From Pecten maximus (taxonomy: Eukaryota): 64,000 nucleotides of DNA. Location: positions 43,586,001 to 43,650,000 of the forward strand of contig NC_047020.1 of NCBI RefSeq assembly GCF_902652985.1, in the 5' to 3' direction. The translations under genes and the position numbers were made by a program. Under the pieces are notes generated by a model. The model did not search any database. It saw nothing but the letters and a program-made list of their open reading frames with translations, and was not told the DNA's origin. Below are positions 2,106-63,300 of the stretch, in pieces (position 1 is the stretch's first letter; each line of letters opens with the position of its first letter).

Positions 2106-2747
2106 ATACTGGCTAGTATTTACTTGTTTAAAACGGCAACTCGCTTGAGAGTTTATATTTGTAACATTATAAGGTAAAACTGGTACAGACTCGATTAAGG
2201 AACACACAGCCGATGTGCTCTCATATATAGGTGAAAATGACAGCTTCATCATTTTCATACCCTGGAGAAATTTATACAGCATTCAATTAAGTACCACAAG
2301 TAAAAACTCCAGGATAGATATTTCTATGTAGACTTTCCAGTAAAAACAACAAGATCCAGTTGTATGCTGATGGAGTAGTGAACTGGTCGCCCATTACATT
2401 TATTTACATTTCATAAAAAGACAACCAGCCTCACGCTCGCTACACTAGCGATACTAAATACATAACTAAAATAGACTGGGTTAGTAGGCCGGGGTCAAGC
2501 ACATCCTCCGATCCGAAATCTCACGCACACCATCAGCCCTAATGACAACATTCATCCGGCCTCTGGTCAGCTATACAACAGATGTCCGCACTGACCATAC
2601 TGGTGATGTCAGGACATTGCACCACAAGGCCAATACACAAGGTCAAGGTCAGATGTAACAATGTTATGACATCACACATGGTCAGATAATCAAGAAACTT
2701 GACAAATTTATTCAATGTTGTGACATTACATCACAAGTTCACAAACT

Positions 2748-3310
2748 GTCATAACACTGTACCACTCCACAGTAATACCATGTCATAACACTGTACCACT
2801 CCACAGTAATACCATGTCATAACACTGTACCACTCCACAGTAATACCATGTCATAACACTGTACCACTCCACAGTAATACCATGTCATAACACTGTACCA
2901 CTCCACAGTAATACCATGTCATAACACTGTACCACTCCACAGTAATACCATGTCATATCACTGTACCACTCCACAGTAATACCATGTCATAACACTGTAC
3001 CACTCCACAGTAATGCCATGTCATAACACTGTACCACTCCACAGTAATGCCATGTCATAACACTGTACCACTCCACAGTAATACCATGTCATAACACTGT
3101 ACCACTCCACAGTAATACCATGTCATAACACTGTACCACTCCACAGTAATACCATGTCATAACACTGTACCACTCCACAGTAATACCATGTCATAACACT
3201 GTACCACTCCACAGTAATACCATGTCATAACACTGTACCACTCCACAGTAATACCATGTCATAACACTGTACCACTCCACAGTAATACCATGTCATAACA
3301 CTGTACCACT
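2748..3310. repeat. 34-bp minisatellite, ~16 near-identical copies (TGTCATAACACTGTACCACTCCACAGTAATACCA)
   Basis: Directly visible tandem array. Confidence 0.97.
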
Positions 3311-20700: not shown

Positions 20701-23700
20701 TTTCAGATCTAGTCTAATAATAGTTAAACTACTGAACCATTTAAATAATATGGGGATCTCTACTTCATCACTAGATCTGACACTGTGGTTTTTGTTACAG
20801 TGGACCTCAACTTGGATACCCACCAGTTCCACCTCCAAACGCCCAGTTTTCTGGATTCAACCCCGGGGGGATGGCAGCAGGGTATCCGTCGCCTCCCACC
20901 CTACCTCCCTCCATTCCTGGGGGTAGCAGGGTATCACCAGTACTAGACAGTAGACGTCAGGTACAGTATACATAAAAATTAATTCCGATTCATTAATGAT
21001 CATATTCTTATTCTTGAATTTTGTGTTGTACCCAATAAAACAGTGTACTGAGACTCACAATAACAGGGTTTGCGTTGAAGCCGTCCCAATAGCCTTTTAA
21101 GCATAAAAAATTAAAAATACTCCATTTTTTCTGGAAGATGATTCAAATTATTCGTAAGGGCCCCATTTTATCTGAAAAGGACCCCATTTATGAAATGTCC
21201 AGTGCAAACCCCGAATAAACTCTTGTATATCAAGTGTAGTTCAGATGTGCTGCAACATCATCTTTACACATCAAATTCACATATCACAGCCAGAAGAAAT
21301 TTTGTTATTCTTCTACCCAGTTATCTACTACACCATATGATTAAAGCAGAATGTACACATGTCTAAGAAGTGAAGCTCTCAAAATGAAGACCAAGGTCTA
21401 AAATTTTCCCCTGTGAACATGTTACGCTAAAAACATAATTTATTTGTATCTGCTAACCTGCCAGGAAAAATAGGGTAGGTGGGATGGGAAATCTTTTTAT
21501 TCTTTGAATTATTTTTATTAAGGTTATAAAAATAGGGAATCTTGACTTTTAAAGTCCTTCCTTTGAAATGGCCAAAAAAACTTGATGGTATACACAAAAA
21601 TATAGAGGAAGTGGGGTTAGCGGAAACAGTTTTTTTTTTTTTTTTTACCTTCTTAAAGATTGAAATGTCATCATTAAAGACGAAGTGAAATTAGAAGTGG
21701 TGCAACTGATCTTTGATCTGTTTAGACCACTAAACTACAATATTTTATTCTGCTTATCACATATTATTGAAAATATATCTGTGGTATCAAAACAATGTGA
21801 CAAATAAGATAGTGAGCATTATATGAAGTTTTAACTGTATTACTTTAATACTCTTTAGGCTGAACAATCAGAAAGCACTGTGACACAAAATGGAGGCATC
21901 CCCAATGTAAAAGTCGCCTTTCCAGAGCTGAAGAAAAAAAGGTAATGAAACAACTATCATCTGTCTGGGTAAAATGTGGAAGGGTATAGGGTTTTTAGCC
22001 CCAGGATTTCTGATCTCTGTGGAGTTGTCTCCCTTTTTCCTAAACTATCCGTTCTTGAAGTCCATCAATAAGATGATATGATTTCTGTGTGAAGTGTTTC
22101 CGAAGATTTTCAACTCATCTGGACACATATATGGTACAGTAGAAAGCACAAGTCTGATCTTTCAGTTACTTAAATTTCTGCTATTTCCCCCACACAACAA
22201 GCTTTAATACCTGTTGTTACTGCTGTGTAAGAATTGTACCTAAAGAATTTTACCAGCTGCCTCCATTCCATGATCCATGAAAGCAAACTAAATTTGAAAT
22301 ATTTTTCTTCTTCGGTATGCCTCCCTTGATACTGCCTATCTTTTAGACTTTAGTTGATCGTTCACCCTGTGAGGAAGGGTTTTGGTTCTGTCCCGCGGCC
22401 GAGACATACAAGAGTCTTTAAAAATAGTTATCACTACTCCTGCTTGACACTCAGCATTTTTGGAGTGGGATACCTGGTTTTGCCCTTATCAGTATAATGT
22501 GTCCGGGTGGTGTGTCCTGCTGGATGTCTTTGGCAATATGCTTCAGTGAGGTAGCACTATAAAGTCAGCATCTAGACCAGCCTCCCAAAACATAAATGAT
22601 GTCTTTAGCCAAGTGTTCTATTGCGACTAGCAGTTACCAGGGTTACATATGTTTTACTTTCGAAGGAACTGCAGTGTCAATATTATCCTCGATATTCCAG
22701 GGGTTACGACCACTTTCATTCTCTACAACCCTGGAATCTGTCCATCCTTGACACTCCGGGGGTAACAACCACTTTCATTCTCTACAACCCTGGAATTCAT
22801 TCTCTACAACCCTGGAATCTGTCTATCCTCGATACTCCAGGGGTTACAACCAATTTCATTCTCTACAACCCTGGAATCTGTCCATCCTCAATACTCCAGG
22901 GGTGACGACCACTTTCATTCTCTACAACCCTGGAATCTGTCCATCCTCAATACTCCAGGGGTGACGACCACTTTCATTCTCTAGAACCCTGGAATCTGTC
23001 CATCCTCGATACTCCAGGGGTTACAACCACTTTCCTTCTCTACAACCCTGGAATCTGTCCATCCTCGATACTCCGGGGGTAACGACCACTTTCATTCTCT
23101 ACAACCCTGGAATCTGTCCATCCTCGATACTCCAGGGGTTACAACCACTTTCCTTCTCTACAACCCTGGAATCTGTCCATCCTCGATACTCCGGGGGTAA
23201 TGACCACTTTCATTCTCTAGAACCCTGGAATCTGTCCATCCTCGATACTCCAGGGGTTACAACCACTTTCCTTCTCTACAACCCTGGAATCTGTCCATCC
23301 TCGATACTCCTGAGGGTAACGACCACTTTCATTCTCTACAACCCTGGAATCTGTCCATCATCGATAATGGATTATGTCCACATTAACTCTCTGCGCCCAT
23401 AGAATTTATCATTTGAATGATTACCCAAGAAATAAGCAAAAATATCATCCCCACAAAAATAACAGGTTGTACAGTATCACAATTGAAGTGTACTCCGTAG
23501 TTATGCTGAAAAAATTCTAATTGAAAAGTTTATGTAAGATATATAGCGGACGGAGAGTATTGAATGATGTATTAATGGTTAGGATCTATTTGATATTAAA
23601 TATGAACATATGTCCGATTGTTGTATTTTCCAGCCTGTCTGAGCTCAACTCTATATTGCATGAGGAAGAAAAAGTTCTCGAGATGATTCAGAACCTACCA

Positions 23701-26700: not shown

Positions 26701-29700
26701 GTCTTAATAAGGTGTCTCCAAACTCACAGGGGACAAAGAAAGCCTGTCAAATGAAGCTTAGGAAGAACTTATTTAATCAGACTAGTGGTAGATTTACAGT
26801 CGCCTTTACAGAACTGAAGAATAAGTGAAATAAAACGTCTTCAGACGGACAAACCGGTTAGTCAGTTTTTAGCCCACCATCATCAGATGGTGGGCTATTC
26901 AAATCGCCCTGCGTCCGTGGTCCGTCGTCCGTCCGTCTGTCCGTCCGTAAACAATTCTTGTTATCGCTATTTCTCAGAAAGTACTGAAGGGATCTTTCTC
27001 AAATTCCTTATGTAGGTTCCCCTTGGTGCCTAGTTATGCATATCGCATTTTGAGACCTATCGGAAAACAACATGGCCGACAGACAGCCATCTGGTATTTT
27101 TAGCCCACCATCATCAGATGGTGGGCTGTTCAAATCGCCCTGCGTCCGTCGTCCGTCCGTCCCTCCGTCCGTAAACAATTCTTGTTATCGCTATTTCTCA
27201 GAAAGTGCTGAAGGGATCTTTCTCAAATTTCATATGAAGGTTCCCCTTGGTGCCTAGTTATGCATATTGCGTTTTGAGACCATTCGGAAAACAACATGGC
27301 CGACAGGCAGCCATCTTGGATTTTGACAATTGAAGTTTGTTATCGCTATTTCTCAGAAAGTACTGAAGGGATCTTGCTCAAATTTCATATGTATGTTCCC
27401 CTTGGTGCCTAGTTATGCATATCGCATTTTGAGACCTATCGGAAAACAACATGGCCGACAGGCAGCCATCTTGGATTTTGACAATTGAAGTTTGTTATCG
27501 CTATTTATCAGAAATTGCTGAAGGGATCTTTCTCAAATTTCATATGTAGGTTCCCCTTGGTGCCTAGTTATGCATATCACATTTTGAGACCTATCGGAAT
27601 ACAACATGGCCGACAGGCAGCCATCTTGGATTTTGACAATTGAAGTTTGTTATCGCTATTTCTCAGAAAGTACTGAAGGGATCTTGCTCAAATTTCATAT
27701 GTATGTTCCCCTTGGTGCCTAGTTATGCATATCGCATTTTGAGACCTATCGGAAAACAACATGGCCGACAGGCAGCCATCTTGGATTTTGACAATTGAAG
27801 TTTGTTATCGCTATTTCTCAGAAAGTACTGAAGGGATCTTTCTCAAATTTCATATGTAGGTTCCCCTTGGTCCCTGGTGTTGCATTTTGGGACCAATCCG
27901 AAAACAACATGGCCGACAGACAGCCATTATCGCTAAATCTTAAATTTTATATATAGGTTCCCCTTGTTTGAAAAGTACTAGAGGGCTGTTTCTGAATTTA
28001 CACAGATTAGTAAGACTTAGAGGAAGGGAAAAGTAGAGAAAAGATCAATCTGACATGTAACCTATAAAGATCATTCAATGGTGGGCGCCAAGATCCCTCT
28101 GGGATCTCTTGTTTAATGTAATATTTCAAACATATATCCTGACGGACCTGCAAATGTTAATACAGGCCTTGGAAGTCTTTGTCAAGGCTCGTCTGAAAAC
28201 AATATAAAATCACCAGGTCTGTCTTTATTTCATAAACAAACAACACGAACTGTTTGGAGTGCAAAAAAACGAAAACAGCCCAGTTCTCTGTGTGAAGATT
28301 GTTCCAGGCTCTATCTCTACCCATCAATTATATAAGATGAATTTAAAATTTCTTCTTTGAGAATATGTATTGTCTCAGTCATTAAATATGTTGGCACTCT
28401 GCTCAAATGACATTTTAACTTATTGCTTAAAGCTCTCAGATGAAAGCCAGACATGTAAATTTGAATGAAATATTCCTCATAAATCACCATATTCATCAGC
28501 TTAGTGATTTTCATTGATGGTCATTACATGATCTTGGTAGGTCTAAATTTTGAGGAGCTGGAATTTCCTTAAATTTAATTCATATGAAATTTCCTGTTTC
28601 CAGGGGAGAATTTGTCCAAAAAGCCCACAATCTTACAGATGAAGCAATGGGTGGCTGACAAGGTAAGCCTCATTCTTTATCTCACTTTAATCTTGTAATC
28701 ATCATCATAGAGCAGTTAGCTTGTCAATATCAATACAACATGGAGTTTATAAAAAAAAAAAATTAACATGCCTCTGGCAAGATGTCTTCATGTCAATTGA
28801 ATTTGACCTGAAATTAACCTGAATTTGAATTTCATGTCAATTTAAAGTAAATTTCAGGTCAATATTTTTTTCAGGTCGAATTTACCACCAGATATTTTGC
28901 CTCTATATACATTTAGAATTACTGAGGGGTTAAGAATTGTGCCTTTTGGAGGTTAACTACAGTACCCACAATCAACAGGATATAAAACTAAAGTGATGTT
29001 TCAATTTACTTTGTTCTTAATAAAAATTTAGGTACCATGACAAATTATTTTCAAATTTATATTATTAAACAAATCTGGTCTTAAAAATATGTCCTTGCTG
29101 AAATTTTGTTGCTTCAAAAATGAATATATTCAAAGTTTACTGCACCTGCTGTATCAACAATAACAAGAGTATCATTTATTTACAGAACAGCCTGTTTGAG
29201 AGTATGATTTATTTACAGAACAGCCTGTTTGAGAGTATGCGGGAGGAGTTCGAGAGTAACCAGGTACAATTGATGTCCGAGTCTGACAAGTTCCAGCCGA
29301 CGAACATCCAGACATGTTTGAAGGTGTCGCTGATGGAGGCTGAGGAGGAGGCGGAGAACATAGTAGGAGAATTGATGGATAGTAAGTATTTTTAGACGCC
29401 CGTCATACCTGGTACTCATTTTCTACTCGGATTGACAGTGAGTACTGGAGTATATTAGATACTCATAGTCTGATTAGGTTAATGGGCACTCAAAACGGCC
29501 TTTATCCTTTGTGACGAGTCCTGGAGGGATATTGGAATCTGCACTTTCAGAAATGTGTTTTACTTTAGGGAAGGGAATGTTCCCCACAAATTATACCAAG
29601 AGGGTTAAAATGGCCCAGTACGATTCCTCATAATTCATCTTCCTCGTAAACAAGTTACATTTTAGAAGTGTGTTTATATTTTCGGGGAAGGGGAATATTC

Positions 29701-37888: not shown

Positions 37889-40800
37889 TCAGGAGAGACT
37901 ACACGACGTCTTGTTCTGACCGGTCCGCTGCTATAACAGAAAACAAGATTTCATTGATCCTCACGCTGTCATCTTCAAAGCCTGTCAGACAAAAAAGGAA
38001 AAATTTAATATGAAGCCATGTAAATATTTATATATTAGATCTTAATGCCACAATGTGATGTTTGTGAGAGGTGAATGATTATGCCAGCTTTTTTGTAATG
38101 CTGTTAAATATTTGTTAGCCAGGCAATACCATGCATACTAACAAAGAACTGTAGCTCTGTATAGTATTGGCCAGGACAATTTTCGTAAATTCCACTCCCT
38201 CAAAGAGGTACTTGTATACAATTACTGTAGGTTGCATTGACATATGGTCAGAAGGACAAACAAAGGCATACAGTCAGAAGGAGAAACAAAGACATACGAA
38301 CAGAAGAACAAATAAAGGAATGCGGACAGAAGAACAGGCATACCAACAGAAGAACAAACAAAGGCATACGCACAGAAGAACAAACAAAGACATATGGACA
38401 GAAGAACAAACAATAACACCAGACAGAAGGACAAACAAAGGTATACGGACAGAAGAACAAACAGGCATACGGACAGAAGAACAAACAATAATACACGGAC
38501 AGAAGGACAAAGGCATACGGACAGAAGAACAAACAAAGGTGTACAGACAGAAGAACAAACAAAGGCGTACGGACAGAAGGACAACAAAAGTATATGGACA
38601 GAAGGACAAACAAAGGTATACAGACAGAAGGACAAACAAAGGTATACGGACAGAAGGACAAACAAAAGTATATGGACAGAAGGTCAAACAAAGTTATACG
38701 GACAGAAGGACAAACAAAGGCATATGGACAGAAGGACAAACAAAGGCATACGGACAGAAGGACAAACAAAGGTATACGGACAGAAGGACAAATAAAGGTA
38801 TATGGACAGAAGGACAAACAAAGGTATACGGACAGAAGAACAAACAGGCATACGGACAGAAGGACAAACAATAACATACAGACAGAAGAACAAAGGCATA
38901 CAGACAGAAGAACAAACAAAGGCATACGGACAGAAGAACAAACAAAGGCATACGCACAGAAGGACAAACAAAGGCATACGCACAGAAGGGCAAACAAAGG
39001 CATATGCACAGAAGAACAAAGGAATACGGACAGAAGAATAAACACAAACTTTTGACACCTACCCTTCTACGCTGCTGATCCCTATTGGCCTCTTCTTGGC
39101 TGGCGGCAATTGCCTGGGCCAGTAAAAGGTCATCCTGCTCCTGCTGGGTCATCCTAAAGGGCAAAGGTCAAAAGGTCAATAGACGATAACGCTTTTAAAT
39201 TTAGCAATGACTTTAAATTTTTACACTTTAAAAAGGAAGACACTTTGTGTACTATGGGAATCATGGTGAATACTTCACATGGAAAAGACCAAGGTACATA
39301 ATGGTAATGTCTGAAATCTGCCCTAATATCTATCATGTAACAGGTGGGTAGACCTGGTACTTAAAACATTGTACAGTCAGAAATAATTGTACACACAAAA
39401 TGACAGTTCTATATACAGACTACCACAACATGGTACATCAAATGGATAACTTGTGAGCTACATAAATTAACAGCTAAATATGTGCCTTATATAATGTACA
39501 TGGGAAACTGCTACATGTCTGTTGGATATATAGCTTTATATAACATTTACTTTATCACAGATATGGGTAATAGGTCTTGGGATGGGGTTGGATACTTACG
39601 TCCTGTTAGAGGTATTTGTGTTGGAAGGTGCTTGTGACTCTGACATGGACATCTGAATAGCTCTCGCTAAAGCTTCTTCCTCTGTCTACAAAACACATTA
39701 CAGGCAATAATTAGTAATCTTACTGAGTTATTGAAGTTAAATCTTCCACAATATTTTCCAGTATTTTATTAATAACATTTGTCAACTGATTTCCATTACT
39801 GTCTATCTTCTGGTTATAAACTTTAAAAAGAAATCTTTCCTAAATAAAGTAGACCTACTTATACATAGCTGTAAAAGTTTGCTGTGTTAATCACCCCTTG
39901 GACAGCCAGGGTCATTTTGAGACGGGGTCTCCTTGTAGTAGCTTGTGGCTACCTAACTGAACAACATACGGGAGGCCCATCGCATGTCTTCCTGAGTAAT
40001 TAGGGTAAAATATCTTGCCCAAGGACACAATCACGTTAGAACAGACTGATCCGTTTCTCAGCTTCCTGAGAAACACTACCCAATACGGGTAGGGAGCAAC
40101 GAACCACACACCTCGGAACTTTACTCGAGGTTATGTAGGCCAACATATCCCTTTAAAACAAATGTATCCAATAATACTCACCATGTTCCCTTGTACAGAC
40201 TGCCTGCCTGTCTGTCCCATCTGTCTTTCTCTTCGCTCCCTACAAAAAACAAAATGTACCACAAGATATAATTAAACTTCATTGAAACTGAGACGGAATA
40301 TGAGTAGCATACAGTACATTTATTCTTAAAAAATTATTGAAGTTTTTAATTCAGGACCAAAAAATTTCTATACGTGTACATTTACTGATGTTTATACTGT
40401 AAATTTGAATATTTGGCAGACATCAAAATATGAACCATCAAAATATCATAAATTGTCACCATATCAGAATGAACAGATTATTTTCATCCAATCCTGTTCT
40501 ATATAAGGAACATAAATTCTGATGTAAACTGAAATTTTAGTTACTCTCTGTGGATACCTTTCAAGTTCTCGGCCAAAGTTGCGCTGTGTGAGTGTCGTCT
40601 GCTGCGGTTTGGACTTGGCCGTCCCTGGACCTTTGTTTCCGGATGGTTTAGAGGGCTGTGGCTGATTTCTAAAATAGCTGCGGCTCTGGAAGTATAAATC
40701 ATCACAATATTTTATGTTCTTTGTTCAAATATCTTTTCACAATCAATTCAACAAGAGTGGCGAGGAATGAATTCTATCACTTGTAGAATTCATCAAACAA

Positions 40801-43800
40801 CTGTTTGGTTCTTTCTGAAAAAGACTTGCAAACAAATCTCTTATTTGACCTTTGACCTTAAAGTATCTCATTAACCTAATTGCAAAACCTTACACACCAT
40901 CTGTGGGCATTATAGAGGTTCAACAAGTTTCATTTTATACAAAATCAAAAAATATTTTACTGGCATATGGAAAGATAATAATTTATTTGTTTTTTAAATT
41001 GAAAAACAATTTATTTTAAGGGAGAAACAGTTGAACCTACCCTGTCTTGGAAATTCCTCGGCCTGAATTCTCAAAGCCTTCACAATCATGGTCCATTTCA
41101 TTTCTGTGTTTCAAGCAAAAATTCTTTTGGCATTTATCACAAGTGACAGGAATGAGCTAAAACAAAGAAAAAATCAAAAGCATAAATTACTTCAGTGTAA
41201 ACTTTATTTGACAACAATTGCGAAACAAATTTTACCATCATATATCAACCACTCTTGTTGGCCCAGATGGAAGCGTGCGAGGAGTTTTATTGTGGGAGAA
41301 AAACTGTAGCACCCAAAGAGAATCTACGTGGTCAGATAAGCCCCCCACACCTTTTCACATCTGATCGGGGAATTGAACCCCTGGCCACCTTTGTGAAAGG
41401 CAAGTGTGTTAACTCTGTGCCACCTGACCACCCAAATTCAAAGTTAAGATGCTTTTTCTAAAGTGGAAAAAATGTTTTTTTGGTAGAAAAGAGGAACAAT
41501 AATTTAGTTTTATATATTAGAAAAGATCTGATGAATAATAATTTCATTTTGTATCTTAGAAAAGAGGAAAGATCATTTTATTTTGTATATTTGAAAAGAG
41601 GAATAATAATTTCATTTTGTATCTTAGAAAAGAGGAAAGATCATTTTATTTTGTATATCAGAAAAGAGGAATAATAATTTCATTTTGTATATTAGAAAAG
41701 ACGAATAATAATTTAATTTTGTGTACAATGAGGAGTAAATAAACACACTTACTTCCTTTTGTTTGCACCCTTTGTGTGAACATCTATTTGTATAAATCTG
41801 AAAATTGAAACAATAAAATTTACAATAAAAAGGCTTAAGGTGATATGTGTACAATTTCGTATACCAACTTCTAGCTGCAGACAGGTTTAGCCAAAAATCT
41901 TATACCGGGTATATGTTAAACGTATATATACCAAATAAGACTGCCCCTCACGAGATAACGGTCTGTTTTCTGTGTACAACCTTACACATCAAAAGCTTTA
42001 TTTTCTCTTTACCTAAGATAATATTTATGAGACTATTGCTAATAAAATAATCTTTCTGAATGTTTCCTTAAAATTCTTTATAAAATTATCCATTTCTGAG
42101 AATTATTTAAGTCTTGATTGTATACTGGTCTTTTGACACCCATTGATATTTGAGTTCTGGACTCAAGGTTTTCTTTTGATTTTTCAAACTACGTGTACTG
42201 TATATTTTTATAGACACTTGTACACATATAAATGGGAAATTGACAAAAGAAGACTTACATTTTTCACTTAAATTTTTTCAATTTTACTTGCAATTCTTCG
42301 TATTGTATTTATATCTTATAAACAAATCAGTGAAGTGGAGTAAAGTTGATTTGACACCAACCTTGCGCCGTTTTCTTGCTGGGTCCGATTGACAATCATT
42401 GTCAATATGTTGTCCAACTACCGCATCTGGCACCTCGTCTTTCTTGATAGGCACTGGCTTGTTACACAGGGGACATACAGGAACCTGATTATCCTATAAA
42501 AAAGTCATATACATTATAAAGCATCATTCCTTACTATATATATATATATATATATAGCTACATTCTGGCAGCTATTTGAAGGATTCTTTTAAGTTAAAAT
42601 TAAAATTGCAAGTAACTTCTCATGCTGTATCCCCTCAGTGTGTAGTGCAAGTTTAGTTTTGTAAACATTTTCATTTTGTGAAATAATTTACACATACAAG
42701 TAAACTAAATTCATAACATTACTTATAGTAAACAAAGGAGAACATTGAAAAACACATTTTAACTTAACATGATAAATTGTCTTTGTATATAATGTAACAT
42801 GTACTAGCTTGTGTGATCATTGACCACATTGACATCACTCAGATGACAAAACTCTCAACAAAGACCACCCCCATTATAAGACCATATGATGCCTGTCCCA
42901 TGGGTGGTCTCATAAGAGAGGGACCACTGTATAAAAATTTGAGGACTTATTTGAGAACCACTTCTATCTTACTATCTAATCTCTGTACATTGACAGCAGT
43001 ACTAGTTGTACCCACCTTTTTATAAGACTCTGTACACTGACAACAGTTGTACTCACCTTTTTATAAAACTCTGTACACTGACAGCAGTACTAGTTGTACC
43101 CACCTTTTTATAAGACTCTGTACACTGACAGCAGTTGTACTCACCTTTTTATAAGACTCTGTACACTGACAGCAGTTGTACTCACCTTTTTATAAGACTC
43201 TGTACATTGACAGCAGTTGTACTCACCTTTTTATAAGACTCTGTACATTGACAACAGTTGTACCCACCTTTTTATAAAACTCTGTACACTGACAACAGTT
43301 GTACTCACCTTTTTATAAGACTCTGTACATTGACAGCAGTTGTACCCACCTTTTTATAAAACTCTGTACACTGACAACAGTTGTACCCACCTTTTTATAA
43401 GACTCTGTACACTGACAGCAGTTGTACCCACCTTTTTATAAAACTCTGTACATTGACAGCAGTTGTACCCACCTTTTTATAAAACTCTGTACATTGACAG
43501 TAGTTGTACATGTACTCACTTTTTTATAAGACTCTGCACATTGATGGCAGTTGTACATTATGTGTTCTCCACTGAAAAAGTAAATACGTCATTTTCATTA
43601 CAAAACTACATATACATGTACTTATACTGGCATTTATCATAGAATGTTTCAGACCAATAAATGATGACCATCCGCATGCAGTGGGATGTCCAACTGACCT
43701 CTCCATTAACATTTAGCATCATATATATTATCCAATGTAATCGGTAACCAATCATCGGTTGTTTTACTCTTCTAATTCATAGTGATGTATAATCGGCTTA

Positions 43801-44602
43801 AAATCAGAATTGAAGATTGGTTTGAATCTGCATGCAGGGCAAACCGATCCAATAATTGGTTTTCTAAATCAGTTTGACAGTACTTTCAGGTAATTGGTTA
43901 TTGTGTTATTGGTAAAAGATTGTTCACAGCCCAAAATGTTCATGTTAACAGCACAGCAATAATACTTACCAAAAGATCTGTGAACAGGCATCACACTTCA
44001 TTGGCAGAAAATCTGGAAAAAAAAGTGATGACAAATTAACATTACCAAAGATCCAAGGTACATGGTTTGACGCTCCCTACTTACCGTGTCGGTTTGTTCT
44101 CGCGATCGGAAGCTGATAAAAGAGAGTCATGTGTTCATGGGCTTCCTGTATTGTTCAGTGAAATAGTCACCAACTACTACATAGTGACCTCAAAATGACA
44201 AGTTTATGCAGTTTATGGGGCGATAAACCCAGCAAACAAACAAACAAAATCGAAGTCTGGGCTTTTCAAAATCATGTGATAGCAAAACAATAACAAACCC
44301 ATAATTGAATTACCACGAAGCTGATTTGTTTCAGTTTCGCCAGTTCGTGTTTTATTAAATTTTGTCAATTTGATATCAACTACGTTACTGCTTGCTACTC
44401 TGTCCTGTATTAGACGATTATTTGGAAATGTTATGGTGATCAGCTCATGTTTTGAATGGAGGACTGATCACTGACAATCATACAGTAAAAGGGTGTTTGT
44501 CAATGTTGTATGTTAATGACTCGTCCGACGTCGTCTAAAAGACTTACCGAGTTGTTTACAAGACTTGTTTGAACAATGGTCTCCTAAATGTGGTAATTCC
44601 AT
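37889..44602 (-). CDS. ZFAND2B: AN1-type zinc finger protein 2 (AIRAPL/ZFAND2B-like: 2 AN1 fingers, 2 UIMs, C-terminal CAAX 'CSLS'), ~282 aa; exons (minus) 44602-44548, 44012-43970, 43571-43520, 42493-42362, 41797-41753, 41156-41041, 40685-40558, 40239-40182, 39685-39600, 39153-39063, 37930-37889; apparent -1 frameshift in exon 7
   Basis: Translation includes MELPHLGDHCSNKSCKQLDFLPMKCDACSQIFCGEH, DNQVPVCPLCNKPVP, HIDNDCQSDPA, IYTNRCSHKGCKQKELIPVTCDKCQKNFCLKHR, the UIMs TEEEALARAIQMS and QEQDDLLLAQAIAAS, and ends KTSCSLS-stop. Junctions are GT-AG. Exon 7 is 128 nt but phase continuity needs 129. Confidence 0.9.
38245..39047. repeat. Degenerate ~26-bp minisatellite (ACAGAAGGACAAACAAAGGCATACGG), ~30 copies, in the last intron of ZFAND2
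   Basis: Visible array starting ~15 nt inside the exon-10 donor; it produces the many spurious ORFs in this interval. Confidence 0.93.
39880..40140 (-). mobile_element. CORE-type tRNA SINE
   Basis: Homologous to 29860-30035 and 50050-50250; GTGTCCTTGGGCAAGATATTTTACCCTAATT core. Confidence 0.7.
41265..41433 (-). mobile_element. V-domain type tRNA SINE (decayed)
   Basis: The minus strand starts GGGTGGTCAGGTGGCACAGAGTTAACACACTTGCCTTTCAC with B-box GGTTCAATTCC; homologous to 52120-52277. Confidence 0.7.
42981..43556 (-). repeat. 41-bp tandem array built from the ZFAND2 exon-3 3' end plus splice donor (12 extra donors)
   Basis: Unit GTG(A/G)GTACAACTGCTGTCAATGTACAGAGTCTTATAAAAAG copies the exonic TACAACTGCCATCAATGTGCAGAGTCTTATAAAAAA|GTGAGT. 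Confidence 0.95.
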
Positions 44603-47414: not shown

Positions 47415-48870
47415 TGTAAGTCGTAATAACGACATAGCTTGAACCAAAATAACGAGATAACTTAACTCGTAATAACGAGATAACGTAACTCGTAATAACG
47501 AGATAACGTAACTCGAAATAACGACATAGCTTGAACCAAAATAACGAGATAACTTAACTCGTAATAACGAGATAACGTAACTCGTAATAACGAGATAACG
47601 TAACTTTGGTTTGTTTTTGTTTAACGTCCTATTAACAGCCAGGGTCATTTAAAGACGTGCCAGGTTTGGAGGTGGAGGAAAGCCGGAGTACCCGGAGAAA
47701 AACCACCGGTCTACGGTCAGTACCTGGCAACTGCCCCACGTAGGTTTCGAACTCGCAACCCAGAGGTGGAGGGCTTGTGATAAAGTGTCGGGACACCTTA
47801 ACTACTCGGCCACCGCGACCCCGTAACTCGTAATAACGAGATAACGAAACTCGGAATAACGAGACAACGTAACTCGGAATAACGAGATAACGTAACTCGA
47901 AATTACGAGATACACTAAATCGTAATAACGATAGCTTGAATCGTAATAACGAGATAACGTAACTCGTAATAACGATATAACGTAACTCGTAATAACGAGA
48001 TAACGTAACTCGGAATAACGAGATAACGAAACTCGTAATAACGAGATAACGTAACTCGGAATAACGAGATAATGTAACTCGTAATAACGAGATAACGTAA
48101 CTCGGAATAACGAGATAACGAAACTCGTAATAACGAGATAACGAAACTCGTAATAACGAGATAACGTAACTCGAAATAACGAGATAACGTAACTCGAAAT
48201 AACGAGATAACGTAACTCGAAATTACGAGATAGACTAAATCGTAATAACGAGATCACGTAATTCGTAATAACGAGATATATTTCAATTTCTACTCAAGTT
48301 GGACTCGATGAAACTACCAAACTTAATCTGTTTCATTTGCTCATGAATTTGACCAGATTAACACTGATCAGTGCGTATGAATACATGGTTAAAATCCTTC
48401 CGCGGAACGATTTCACTTTTTCTACATTGTTGTTATAAACATGGATTAATTATCAAAATTATCAAATTTATAATGTATTCTTGTATTTTATGAAAGACCA
48501 GATATGCTGGATACTTCTATTTTGACAAAATAATGCTGTTTTTAATCCTAAAATTGCGGACTATTTTACTCGACCGACTAGACAAGCACAATCCGGAACT
48601 CCTCGGGCTTTTCCGCATTTGGACTTGCACAAGCTTCGAGACATTAATATCTAGACCGCCTTTTTTATTCGAAAAAAAACCCCAATTGAAATATAAGGAT
48701 TGAATCTTGATTTGGTCGATTTCATGGGGTCATGAATTGAGTTGCTCTTGAGACAAATTCAACATGAACTGCGAAACTCGTAATAACGAGATAACGTAAC
48801 TCGTAATATTGAGATCACGTTACTCGTAATAACGAGATTTTTTTTTCACGTGGTTATATGGCTTTCGTAC
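47415..48870. repeat. 23-bp minisatellite (AATAACGAGATAACGTAACTCGT), main block 47415-48277 and a short block 48775-48838, probably subterminal repeats of a DNA transposon ending GGCTTTCGTA
   Basis: Visible array; each unit contains the hairpin CTCGT-AATA-ACGAG. Confidence 0.85.
47606..47822 (-). mobile_element. Full-length, young V-domain tRNA SINE inserted in the 23-bp array
   Basis: Minus strand: GGGGTCGCGGTGGCCGAGTAGTTAAGG head, B-box GAGTTCGAAACC, V-type GGTTTTTCTCCGGGTACTCCGGCTTTCCTCCA, and a GGACGTTAAACAAAAACAAACCAA tail; GTAACT on both sides. Confidence 0.85.
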
Positions 48871-57351: not shown

Positions 57352-60300
57352 ATGTATACCACATATGCAGTGCTGGTAATATTGACCTTGACCTTCCATA
57401 GCGCCCTCTGTCAACAATATAGCGAGGCTGTCTTTCTGTCTGATGACGTCACATGTAAGTATGTTTTTGGCCGTCCGTCCATTACCCGGGAAATGTTGTC
57501 GTTTTCATTATATTATCGTATATTCAATATTACAGAGAGAAATATGTCTAAATTTTCAAACAAATAGTGAGAAAAAAACAACAGAATTTTCCTAGGAGAC
57601 CCTAAGGTAAAAATGAATTCGTATCATTCATTTTTTTTAAAATCTTCTTATGAACAATGATGCCTTAGTCCGTGTTATTTGACCAATAGCGAATTGAGAA
57701 AAGGACATATCAAGATGTGTATTAACTATCTCAGCAAACTTTCAAGGTCAAATCAGTGGCGACGGTCACAGTTCCAGGTGAAGTATGCCTCCTGGTATTC
57801 ATGGAGATTGATATAATGCTGTAACGTAGATGCTTTAAAGTATTGGAATGAAACCAGCCCACGGTTTTTTACCCACAGACAGCTGTTGCGGATTCGTGGA
57901 CCTGGTACTAGTCGTGGATGCTTCAGCCTTCACGCGCTTCACCACACCACGTGGTGTTCCAATATGGCACCCCGGCATCGCCGTGTTCGTCAACAACCTT
58001 CTGCGAGTTCTCCAAGTGGGCCCAGCATCGTTTCGAGTGGCCGCCATATTGTACAGCACAGGTATTGATGACATCATGCCTTTCAGTGTACATCAAGTCT
58101 ACACCCTCCACACTTTCGGATTTCTCCGTCCTGGGTTCGGTGTCTCGGCCACGGCTAAGGGTTTATCGGAGATGAGAAAGATGCTGTCATACTACGGTCG
58201 ACCGGACGCGGCCAAGCGTGCCATCCTTCTCAGTGCTTCCCATTCTAATGACCACCAGGCGGCGCTAGTAGAGGCTAACCTTGCTAGGTCCATGGGAATA
58301 GATATCCTCTCGGTAGGATTCGGACCTTTCCGGGACGTTGGTGAACTGAACGAAATTAGTCCCGGCTGGGTATTAGAAGTTCCTGATGCTGGCATGCTCT
58401 ATGCTCTTGTCGGGAGAATAGCCGCAAGGTTGTGTAAAGGTAATTTATATTAATATTATTCAGCCTTGACCATAACCCCTTAATGCTACAAGTTTCCTTA
58501 TTGCTAAAAGGTCTAATCACAGGACTCTGCATCTGGTTAATATTTATAGAAAACAAAATTAGTCCCTACTCTTACTACATCAAAAAATATAACACTTGAA
58601 AAGTCGGAAGTGGGGAGTGAGCTTCGATTCACTTTTAATTCAAGTTCAATCCGACTAAAATATCAAATGAACACAAACTTTAGTAATGTACCTTGGTTCA
58701 GAATCCTAAGATATCAACGTTTGTCGTGAGACAATAAAGTGGTCGTGCTAGCCGACGATGCATCGACTGTGGAACGGAAGTAGGCAGCATATTTTAGAGC
58801 GGTTTTGCAACTGGCAATCTGATTGGTCGACCGCTCTGTAAACAAAACTAACTATAATTGTTGACCAATCAGACTTGTGGTTTTAAAACAGTTCTAGATA
58901 ACCTACTTCCGTTCCACAGTCGATGCATCGTCTGATCTTCAAGTGTTGATATTGTAGGAGTAGGGGCTTTTATTTTTTCATAAATATTTACCACAAGCAG
59001 ACGCCTGCGGTCTAATCCTGATATAGACACACAACATAATGTACAATATATTATCTTGATTAATTGCTTTTTTTGAATGTTTGCTTGGGGCCATTGGTTT
59101 GGTTTACTGTTTGGTTTGCCGTTTGATCCTTCATTTTAATTTGCAGTTTCCAAATTTGTCCTCCTTTCTTTTTTTACCATTTTTGCTCAACACCTTTATT
59201 TAAATGTGCTAAAACCTTTTAACATTTTGTTAATTACAGAAGCGGTCAATGGAGGCTGGTCGCCATGGCTCAGCTGGACCCCCTGTTCAAAAAGTTGTGA
59301 TGGCGGTGTATCTAGGAGATTTCGTTTCTGTAATAACCCACTTCCGCAATATGGCGGCTCTTTCTGTACAGGAGTTCCCGACATAAGAATGGATTGTAAC
59401 ACACAACCTTGCTTAGGTAAGTTTGGACTTGTCTATAAGGCGGTAGGACTAAATATAAGCTTCTCTGATTGACCCAGAACTTTCCGCATATGGTTTTCGA
59501 AAATTCCCCTTTTGCCAACACCAGGGTTCTACACGGTGTTATTGTGGTAGTCATAGTAGTTTTAGTTTAGCAAAACATTATTCTTCTACTTCCTGTCTAG
59601 CCATGGCAACAACAAAAAAAAACCAGATATTAGTATGTGGTACATGCCCAGTTGAGATTCAAATGTTGAATTGCGTTTTTCAGCGTTCTTCTCCGGAGGA
59701 GTTGATTGGTCAACTTGGGGCCCATGTTCTGCTACATGTGGATCCGGCACGCGCTCACGCTTTCGACCGTGTCTGTCTAGGTCTCAATGTAGGCCTGGAG
59801 CATCAGAGACAAGAACATCAACATGTAGGATGTCAGCTTGTCCAGGTAATGTAACTATATAACAGAACAGTTTTGATAATACAGTTCCCATTACGACTAC
59901 TATATTTATTATACCCTGCATGCACGCTACTCAATTTGGTCACCTCTCGTCGTCGACAATACACTGCATGCACGCTACTCAATTTGGTCGCCTCTCGTCG
60001 TCGACAATACACTGCACGCACGCTACTCAATTTGGTCGCCTCTCGTCGTCGACAATACACTGCACGCACGCTACTCAATTTGGTCGCCTCTCGTCGTCGA
60101 CAATACACTGCACGCACGCTACTCAATTTGGTCGCCTCTCGTCGTCGACAATACACTGCACGCACGCTACTCAATTTGGTCGCCTCTCGTCGTCGACAAT
60201 ACACTGCACGCACGCTACTCAATTTGGTCGCCTTCCGTCGTCGACAATACACTGCACGCACGCTACTCAATTTGGTCGCCTTCCGTCGTCGACAATACAC

Positions 60301-63300
60301 TGCACGCACGCTACTCAATTTGGTCGCCTTCCGTCGTCGACAATACACTGCACGCACGCTACTCAATTTGGTCGCCTTCCGTCGTCGACAATACACTGCA
60401 CGCACGCTACTCAATTTGGTCGCCTTCCGTCGTCGACAATACACTGCACGCACGCTACTCAATTTGGTCGCCTTCCGTCGTCGACAATACACTGCATGCA
60501 CGCTACTCAATTTGGTCGCCTCTCGTCGTCGACAATACACTGCATGCACGCTACTCAATTTGGTCGCCTTCCGTCGTCGACAATACACTGCATGCACGCT
60601 ACTCAATTTGGTCGCCTTCCGTCGTCGACAATACACTGCATGCACGCTACTCAACTTGGTCGCCTTCCGTCGTCGACAATACACTGCATGCACGCTACTC
60701 AACTTGGTCGCCTTCCGTCGTCGACAATACACTGCATGCACGCTACTCAATTTGGTCGCCTTCCGTCGTCGACAATACACTGCATGCACGCTACTCAATT
60801 TGGTCACCTCTCGTCGTCGACAATACACTGCATGCACGCTACTCAACTTGGTCGCCTCTCGTCGTCGACAATACACTGCATGCACGCTACTCAACTTGGT
60901 CGCCTCTCGTCGTCGACAATATTTTTTACATTACACTGCTGCACCGATACTCAAATTTAGTCGCCTCTCGTCGTCGACCTTTTTCTTGACAGTCCCCAAC
61001 AGTCTAAAGTGTATCCCATAGTGACATTGCGGCCCTCGTAAATTTTTGTTTGTGCAGTCCTGATAATTCTTTTCATATAACTTTGCTATCAGGGACGTTT
61101 GCCAATTTGACTCTTTACATGGTATTTTGAGAGTTCTTCGGACTTTATACACAATATTTTTATTATATCCATCATCATCTCATGGACGATAATGCATCAA
61201 GTATCTATACAATATCGTCCACCTGTTCCTTCCTTGTATCCATATAAAATCATTTTGGGACGAAACGTCCATTAACACTTCGCCAATTGCACACGCGGGA
61301 TATTTTCAAATGTCTTGGCCGTTGGTCACATAGCGTTCCATCATAGAACATGGCTTTGTACATGTCACGCTAGCCACCGCCTTCGGCCCACGCCAGCCGA
61401 AGGGTTCATGGTTATTTCAACTACTTCCAAAAATACTAGTCTTACTGTATGTTATTGTAATTTCTAGTACTGTTTATATATCATGTGATTGTATTTGTAT
61501 TATCTGTGTCTTAATAAAGGGGTGGATTGCCATTTGACATTGTTCATGTCCACACAATGTTAGAATTACTTCTTTGCCCCATATTATATATAAATATACA
61601 TGTATATATATCACAAACAACATTAGCAATATGGATATAAATATTTTTAGCTGTTGATCAATCATTAGTAGCTGGGTTAGAAGATTCCCAGCGTAACAAA
61701 ATATAAAAACGCAATTTACAGTAGACCTATACAGGGGCATTTTCACGACTGGATCATTTTCGCAATTTTCGCTGTATGATTCGACCGCAAATTCAGATAT
61801 GCAGTAATCGTTTCAATTTCCGAGCATTGCTGCAAACTTACGTTACAAGACGCTTAGCTTTCTTTACTAAGCATTTATAAACAAATAGCAGATCCGGGTC
61901 GCCAGTTCCAGCGAAATCTTGATGAAATCGCGAAAATAACTCTGAACTCAAATCTGTATACAGTAGTCTGTGTGGATAATACAATAGTCGTGAGGTGAAG
62001 GGCGTCACTCTATAAACATTGAAGCTCCATCTTTATATACATATGTTTACATTTGCACCACATTTTCCCATTGACACAATACTGAGAGGCAGTTGCCATC
62101 ATACACCTATAACACCCAGTAGGTCACGTGACGTTAAAAAGAGGCGGGGACTTTTTTGTTGGTTCATTTTTTTTCAAAATTGACGAAAATGGGAAGACAA
62201 TGTAAATATAAGTATTGATTATTGAACAGTGGTTTTAATGTTTAATGATGGGCAAATGTGGCATGGGAACCCTTTGGAACCTAACGGGTTCCGTGGCATT
62301 TGACGACCATACATCTTGCTGTCATATCGATCATAACAACATTAACATCATTGCTTAAATATATCCAGTTGAATCAACGTGGGGTACTTGGTTGTCATGG
62401 GAACCATGTTCTATGACGTGTGGGCGTGGCGTGAGACAGCGCCGCCGGAAGTGTACAGACACAAGCCCCGGAGTAGACGGACGCTGCCTCGGGCCAGGAA
62501 TGGACACGGAAATGTGTAACGCAGGAATTGCGTGTCAAGGTAATATTGGGTTATTCTTGTGATGTCATCAATTTAAACATTTTAATTCATTGTATCTTAA
62601 TGATTTCTTGACACTTTTTTGGCAAACTACCACATTAGGGGCTCACGGGATAGAATATGTATACTAGTAATTTATTATGTTGGATTTGAAAACCTCCAAA
62701 GACCAATCTTGAACATCCGCTCCTGAAAAAGCCTCTTCTAGCAAACATTTTCCCGCCCTTTGCACAATCGGAACACCTCGCCTCCGTCTGCGAACGTACG
62801 ATGGGTTCAGACTGGCCATTTGCACTGCCATTCGTCATTCCAAACATTCGGAACTCCTTCGTCCACTAGCTACGACCAAGTAACTATTAACGACTAGACG
62901 ACTAGTTAGTACTAAGGCTCAGATGGTCTCCAAACAGACTATTGGCATAACCACGGGAACAAAGTGTGACCCTTTCTTGACCTACTTTTGTGGTTGTCAT
63001 ACGATTATATTGAAGAGATTATCAAAACCGGCGATATAGACCTTGCAAAATTCTTTAATTTTATCAATAGATATCCTAAAATCAAAATTCTTGTCTTATT
63101 CTTCTTGCTTTTTGTCAAGGTTTTTCATGTAATTCTATATTTTCCTATTTATTTATTTATTTATTTATTTATTTTTGTTTATCTATTTTATCGATTTTAA
63201 TTTTTGATTGGAGTGTCGGTATCCTCTGCTGTATTTATCAAATTACATTCGTCCCTAGGTTAAAAACAATGTATGCTGTTTGTCTGCATTGATCAGAAAA

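Follow-up and report, generated by a model that had tools for sequence, protein, structure and literature searches.

Gene structure at the locus

The window, that is, the whole 64-kb stretch of the Pecten maximus genome that was analysed, holds a ZFAND2/AIRAPL-like gene on its minus strand (Table 1). Its protein, P0002, bears the name AN1-type zinc finger protein 2A-like (Pecten maximus) and matches exon 4 with 100% identity; exon 4 has one match in the Pecten maximus genome. P0002 carries PF01428 and PF25403, i.e. the AN1 fingers plus the PF25403 finger of ZFAND2/AIRAP(L), and together with the P0002 match this bears out the gene identity given in the original prediction. A UIM and a C-terminal CaaX are features of AIRAPL, as stated in the part of the AIRAPL report cited here (PMC4626058). 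In the scallop gene, the segment EEEALARAIQMS looks UIM-like by eye, PF02809 being listed for several orthologues and absent from the P0002 listing, and the C-terminus reads CSLS when the acceptor at 37930 is used. Exons 6-11 were placed from the sequence and orthologue proteins only.

Table 1. Positions of the gene, the array and the donors in the window (a slash marks the exon-intron boundary)
Feature	Position	Strand	Remarks
ZFAND2/AIRAPL-like gene, whole coding span, 11 exons	37889..44602	-	single copy
Exon 1, coding part, 55 nt	44548..44602	-	RNA contig extends to 44685
Exon 2, 43 nt	43970..44012	-	joints 43571-43970 and 44012-44548 in X1, X4
Exon 3, 52 nt, phase 0 end, ...YKK	43520..43571	-	RNA contigs X1, X4; protein P0002
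Exon 4, 132 nt, DNQVPVCPLC...	42362..42493	-	RNA contigs; protein P0002
41-bp junction-spanning minisatellite: exon copy, 12 intronic copies and partial tail	42981..43556	-	TRF, motif positions
Real donor AAA/GTGAGT, first intron base 43519	43514..43522	-	joined to exon 4 in X1, X4, X16
Copies 1-4, all AAG/GTGGGT, first intron bases 43472, 43431, 43390, 43349	43344..43475	-	
Copies 5-12	43010..43311	-	AAG/GTGAGT or AAG/GTGGGT
First in-frame TAA, in copy 2	43436..43438	-	

A minisatellite across the end of exon 3

The end of exon 3 is the beginning of a tandem array, for which TRF gives a period of 41, 13.2 copies and 90% matches (43004-43556). It begins within exon 3, at 43556, and continues over 43520/43519, so that its first unit spans the exon-intron boundary. 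Each unit is the end of exon 3 plus the donor, and all 12 head-to-tail intronic units carry AAG/GTGRGT; the exon 3/intron 3 region thus has 13 donors on the minus strand, one real and 12 copies. Five copies read AAG/GTGAGT (first intron bases 43308, 43226, 43185, 43144 and 43056), while the seven AAG/GTGGGT copies comprise copies 1-4 and those at 43267, 43103 and 43015. Successive donors are spaced by 47, nine times 41, 47 and 41 bp. The original prediction had correctly counted 12 donor copies behind exon 3 and described the 41-bp unit with its first step of 47 bp; its AAG/GTGAGT positions were 2 nt off, and the second 47-bp step had been missed.

All 12 occurrences of AAGGTGRGT on both strands of the 64-kb window lie inside the array, hence they are not due to chance but to the repetition of one unit. 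Genome-wide, the array has a single matching place (one candidate). The assembly offers no second haplotype of it, and a search of metagenome contigs for other alleles or scallop DNA returned 0 hits. The array is a junction-spanning minisatellite (F7-type, or 'mirage') and is not classed as a VNTR.

Donor strength and outcome of exon extension

Duplex energies were computed with the U1 5' end from the scallop's own genome. This score overrates G-U pairs and ignores U6/U5; by it the real donor has -7.1 kcal/mol, the GTGAGT copies -12.1 and the GTGGGT copies -11.3, so that all 12 copies look stronger than the real donor. The prediction that AAG/GTGAGT pairs better with U1 than AAA/GTGAGT thus holds, and the number of copies that surpass the real donor rises from the five claimed to 12 of 12. 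Within ZFAND2, A at -1 is by sequence not unusual, since exon 5 ends in GAA/GTAAGT. RNA folding lends no support to masking of the copies, whose mean unpaired probability is 0.37-0.59 vs 0.40 at the real donor.

If exon 3 were extended to copies 1-4 it would measure 99-222 nt, and if extended to copies 5-12, 263-556 nt. Extension to copy 1 shifts the frame and leads to a stop in exon 4 (90 aa), whereas extension to any of copies 2-12 runs into TAA at 43438-43436 (77 aa), both as foreseen. Every extension therefore contains a premature stop, far upstream of later junctions. The broader claim that every decoy is unproductive is correct for exon extension; it does not cover the 7 of 12 units that could form an in-frame 21-nt exon. 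An in-frame stop before the donor, which is the criterion for latent 5' splice sites (SOS), is found for 11 of the 12 copies, copy 1 being the exception.

Donor use in RNA contigs

Contigs from six of 24 RNA runs (X1, X2, X3, X4, X15 and X16) were compared with the locus. Contigs can demonstrate only the presence of a form, rare forms being lost from them, and any leak would yield products that NMD depletes. In X1 and X4, exons 1, 2 and 3 are spliced together in contigs that cease to follow the window at 43519/43520; no spliced contig covers exons 1-3 in X3 or X15. Exon 4 is joined to the true end of exon 3 in three of four runs (X1, X4 and X16, from three studies), the fourth, X2, having no contig over exon 4. 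In each of the three there is one loose end at exon 4, which has A at -1 and the exon-specific GCCATC, and one X1 contig enters exon 4. Among the contigs of these three runs, none joins exon 4 to an array copy.

The main ZFAND2 RNA uses the donor at 43519, and the exon 4 joints confirm AAA/GTGAGT as the productive donor, as originally proposed. The diversion of transcripts to the copies, proposed at the same time, is not supported, as exon 4 is joined to a copy in no contig; a leak that is small or masked by NMD might nevertheless escape contigs. Likewise, no stop-containing isoform, of the kind made in regulated unproductive splicing (AS-NMD), occurs in the contigs, which lose rare forms.

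Origin and age of the array

The motif GTACA is present at 43556 in the exon and at 43515 in the intron, 41 bp apart. Compared with the expressed exon, the units show three fixed differences (-27, -26 and -1), and four transitions segregate among them: at -28 (4/12), -22 (7/12), -11 (5/12) and +4 (7/12). Since G at +4 segregates like the three variant sites outside the signal, it represents one mutation that spread rather than seven weakenings. As the GTGGGT copies still outpair the real donor with U1 (-11.3), the suggestion that selection had weakened the decoys through +4 G is unsupported. The four copies nearest to the real donor are all GTGGGT, for which p = 0.07 if their order is random, although the units are not independent.

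Among 56 metagenome loci, an intron is found at the same K/D position in 40, the sequence is contiguous in 13 and the motif is absent in 3. The intron position is common to 40 of 56 distant loci and therefore the intron is older than the array; on the same grounds we rejected the creation of the intron by the duplication. A dispersed satellite or transposon origin was also rejected, the array having one genomic locus in a search that skips very common words. None of the 27 distant animal loci with the donor in view, which represent few lineages and no scallop, has a tandem array at the donor. No scallop-like locus occurs among the metagenome loci, the best reaching 48% over its full length.

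In 26 of the same 27 loci the exon ends in AAG/GT. This pattern suggests that G at -1, as in the copies, is ancestral and that a silent change from AAG to AAA affected the real donor afterwards, so that its loss of -1 G may postdate the array. The reverse order of the two events is possible, because the array founder also changed at -27/-26. At 43537, the assembly has G (Ala), whereas A (Thr) is found in all 12 array units, in the RNA of three runs and in three further scallop proteins; the assembly G is either a rare allele or an error.

Donor-like arrays in the genome

As a base-rate sample we used 40 stretches (400 kb) of the Pecten maximus genome and counted arrays with a period of 15-150 and five or more copies. 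The sample contains 78 arrays (19.5 per 100 kb), of which 5 have GTRAGT in at least a third of their units, and 83 AG/GTRAG sites. Extrapolation to the whole genome gives about 180,000 arrays and roughly 190,000 AG/GTRAG-like sites. By a rough estimate, in which the number of donors is put at about 200,000 and the unit at 40 bp, chance could place the start of hundreds to over a thousand arrays on a donor. Five of six donor-motif arrays in the random sample were inspected by eye and none has an obvious exon at its start, so that the sample shows only that donor-like arrays are common. A 41-bp array in one stretch (L021, 6044-9074) has about 74 copies, with GTGAGT in 50 units and no obvious exon at its start.

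With some 190,000 similar sites genome-wide (83 AG/GTRAG per 400 kb in the sample), 12 additional U1 sites would be negligible, and the sequestration of U1 by the array, another part of the original prediction, is implausible.

Comparison with known systems

A literature search, which was not exhaustive, found no paper on the ZFAND2 array locus, and the comparisons made here refer to the cited portions of each source. Human F7 intron 7 has a 37-bp VNTR whose first unit spans the junction, and splicing there uses only the donor lying furthest upstream (Borensztajn et al. 2006, PMC1557585). In the cited portion of that work, improved copies with CV up to 91 do not compete and 1-12 units leave donor choice unchanged; a perfect downstream CAG/gtgagt took 70-90% of splicing, and TAG/gtgggt did not compete. 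The ZFAND2 array is similar in that the first unit lies over the exon-intron boundary, each unit has a donor and the upstream-most donor is used. However, the copies described for F7 equal the real donor and include 4 exon bases, whereas a ZFAND2 unit takes in some 36 exon bases, and every copy has a different base at -1 and exceeds the real donor in strength. There are 12 copies in ZFAND2 and 4-8 in F7, for which polymorphism has been shown. The same text lists minisatellites with reiterated donors in 10-25 copies in IFI6 (6-16) intron 2, CBS intron 13, LMNB2 and PDGF intron 4 (PMC1557585). By its account IFI6 and CBS also use two pseudo-sites, while at the contig level ZFAND2 uses none.

Tandem duplications of exon-intron boundaries with diverged units are also found in an invertebrate, namely the amphioxus 'mirages' of Adh3, BflGb6 and BflGb9, where splicing was undisturbed by RT-PCR according to the excerpt cited (PMC3087553). 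The units of mirages are 81-100% alike and 10-160 bp long, haplotype length differences have been shown for them (6 vs 3 units), and amphioxus belongs to a different phylum from scallop. Copies 2-12 furthermore resemble latent 5' splice sites, being unused intronic donors behind an in-frame stop. Such donors lie behind stops in most human introns, and about 11% of them rise with heat shock, as reported in the cited part of Nevo et al. 2012 (PMC3510495). Unlike latent sites, those of ZFAND2 come from one repeat, and copy 1 has no upstream stop. Finally, the array is an intronic repeat beside a junction, as are human splicing-associated tandem repeats. The length of the latter can alter splicing, mostly via protein binding, as shown by genotype-RNA association in the text cited (PMC10078293); the ZFAND2 array is known here from sequence and contigs.

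The ZFAND2 array is another natural donor-repeating minisatellite of a type known from human and lancelet, and it is likely harmless. Because its first donor is weaker than every copy, unlike in F7, it is useful as a test case for the reach of the 'first donor wins' rule in a mollusc. If a leak scaled with array length under stress, repeat length would have a direct path to gene dosage.

Possible explanations

We consider the array, with a probability of about 0.75, to be a locally born minisatellite over the exon 3/intron 3 boundary, in which the first donor is used and the 12 copies are likely silent passengers with no regulatory role. Its birth might be explained by slippage between the two GTACA motifs, followed by expansion into the intron, where length would cost nothing, and by the spread of the four point variants among units through slippage or conversion. 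The first donor would win through its leading position and because, paired with the acceptor at 43572, it defines an exon of 52 nt. The first of the five GTGAGT copies is copy 5, which lies 211 nt downstream of the real donor, so that the strongest copies would require exons of at least 263 nt, and NMD would remove any small leak. Several points argue against silent copies. All 12 outpair the real donor with U1, and five are AAG/GTGAGT; the four nearest are all GTGGGT and no fold hides the copies. By analogy, the downstream CAG/gtgagt that took most of the splicing in F7 and the two pseudo-sites used in IFI6 and CBS, as described in the cited portion of PMC1557585, might also speak against them.

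A different and rather unlikely explanation is that the copies do compete, that a sizeable part of the transcripts leaks and goes to NMD and that purifying selection keeps the weaker GTGGGT near the real donor. The GTGGGT run of copies 1-4 would agree with this, as would the premature stop in every extension and the finding in F7 that TAG/gtgggt did not compete whereas CAG/gtgagt did (PMC1557585, cited portion). However, neighbouring units share variants by descent, so that p = 0.07 is overstated, and the duplex energies of the GTGGGT copies remain better than that of the real donor. Moreover, A at -1 of the real donor in the assembly and in all three informative runs would be unexpected if competition were costly.

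The original prediction went further and saw in the array a possible VNTR-controlled rheostat; in the form considered here, array length and stress would set the share of ZFAND2 pre-mRNA sent to NMD or held unspliced. The combination of a weak real donor with 12 stronger copies speaks for this idea, and the AAG found at the donor in 26 of 27 distant loci would fit a real donor that weakened after the array arose. In addition, heat shock raises latent donors in human cells (508 of 4669 sites in the part of PMC3510495 cited). Nevertheless, we regard it as improbable. A contig spliced at a copy was not found, and the array is absent at the donor in the 27 distant loci. In F7, according to the excerpt of PMC1557585, the donor used was the same with 1-12 units. 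Latent donors with stops are present in most introns (PMC3510495, same part), and activation by stress would lower a proteostasis gene when it is needed. One specific version, in which the -1 G was lost after the array arose and heat or arsenite, by activating latent sites, directs much of the ZFAND2 pre-mRNA to the copies and so to NMD according to array length and the position of the first GTGAGT, is likewise given little credence. If true, it would constitute a heritable, length-tuned splice rheostat on a proteostasis gene of a farmed shellfish.

We think it very improbable that the units serve as a source of an in-frame microexon, a 21-nt exon between the first zinc finger and the next. 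A CAG acceptor lies 21 nt before the donor in 7 of 12 units (3, 4, 6, 9, 10, 11 and 12), and such an exon would add CTESYKK or CTEFYKK with phase 0 at both ends and no stop; under the mirage model, units of this kind are a proposed source of new exons (PMC3087553, in the excerpt cited). Yet the pyrimidine tract is weak, in three of three informative runs the sequence joined to exon 4 has A as its last letter and includes the exon-specific stretch, and the insertion is absent from 8 aligned scallop proteins. That the assembler created or inflated the array is hardly credible: there is a probable 1-nt assembly error in exon 7 and the mismatch with three RNA runs at 43537, but the units depart from the exon at fixed sites and four further sites vary from unit to unit, and run X3 contains an array-like contig at 43450-43507 (58 letters, 5 differences).

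Other features of the gene and window

The last exon can begin at either of two acceptors on the minus strand. The one at 37981 leads to a tail ...ALKMTA-stop, which has no CaaX, and the one at 37930, a TAGCAG tandem acceptor, to the CaaX-like ...SCSLS-stop. Both tails are present in other scallops (Mizuhopecten, Ylistrum, and Argopecten X1 and X2). Since AIRAPL requires its CAAX for ER location (PMC4626058, in the part cited), this conserved choice between 37981 and 37930 is more likely than the array to be a regulated splicing event of ZFAND2.

At a T run in exon 7, near 40671, the assembly departs by 1 nt from the frame of the orthologues. These have GAAAIFRNQPQP, whereas the RefSeq model reads GAAAILEISH and recovers later. 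The frame slip is likely an assembly error, so that about 55 residues of the RefSeq ZFAND2 protein are probably incorrect. Three scallop proteins derived from run assemblies begin at the exon-2 Met and are possibly incomplete.

Intron 1 contains a dispersed repeat (44065-44250) that is abundant in RNA contigs and has an acceptor-like and a donor-like site 28 nt apart (about 44110-44083). The 28-nt exon that this pair could delimit (near 44083-44110) was rejected, as it lies inside the dispersed repeat and is skipped by both spliced contigs.

U1 snRNA genes form tandem clusters at 22.10-22.19 Mb of C18 and 2.407-2.417 Mb of C7, with 42 matches scored in all.

ZFAND2 has two more minisatellites, of 34 bp (41484-41722) and 26 bp (38241-39044), which start about 30 bases behind the donor of exon 5 and about 20 bases behind that of exon 10, respectively, and do not include the donor. 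Further long minisatellites of the window are located at 992-2108 (45 bp), 2747-3310 (34 bp), 22685-23366 (59 bp), 26866-27927 (155/224 bp), 47416-48838 (23 bp) and 59911-60921 (48 bp).
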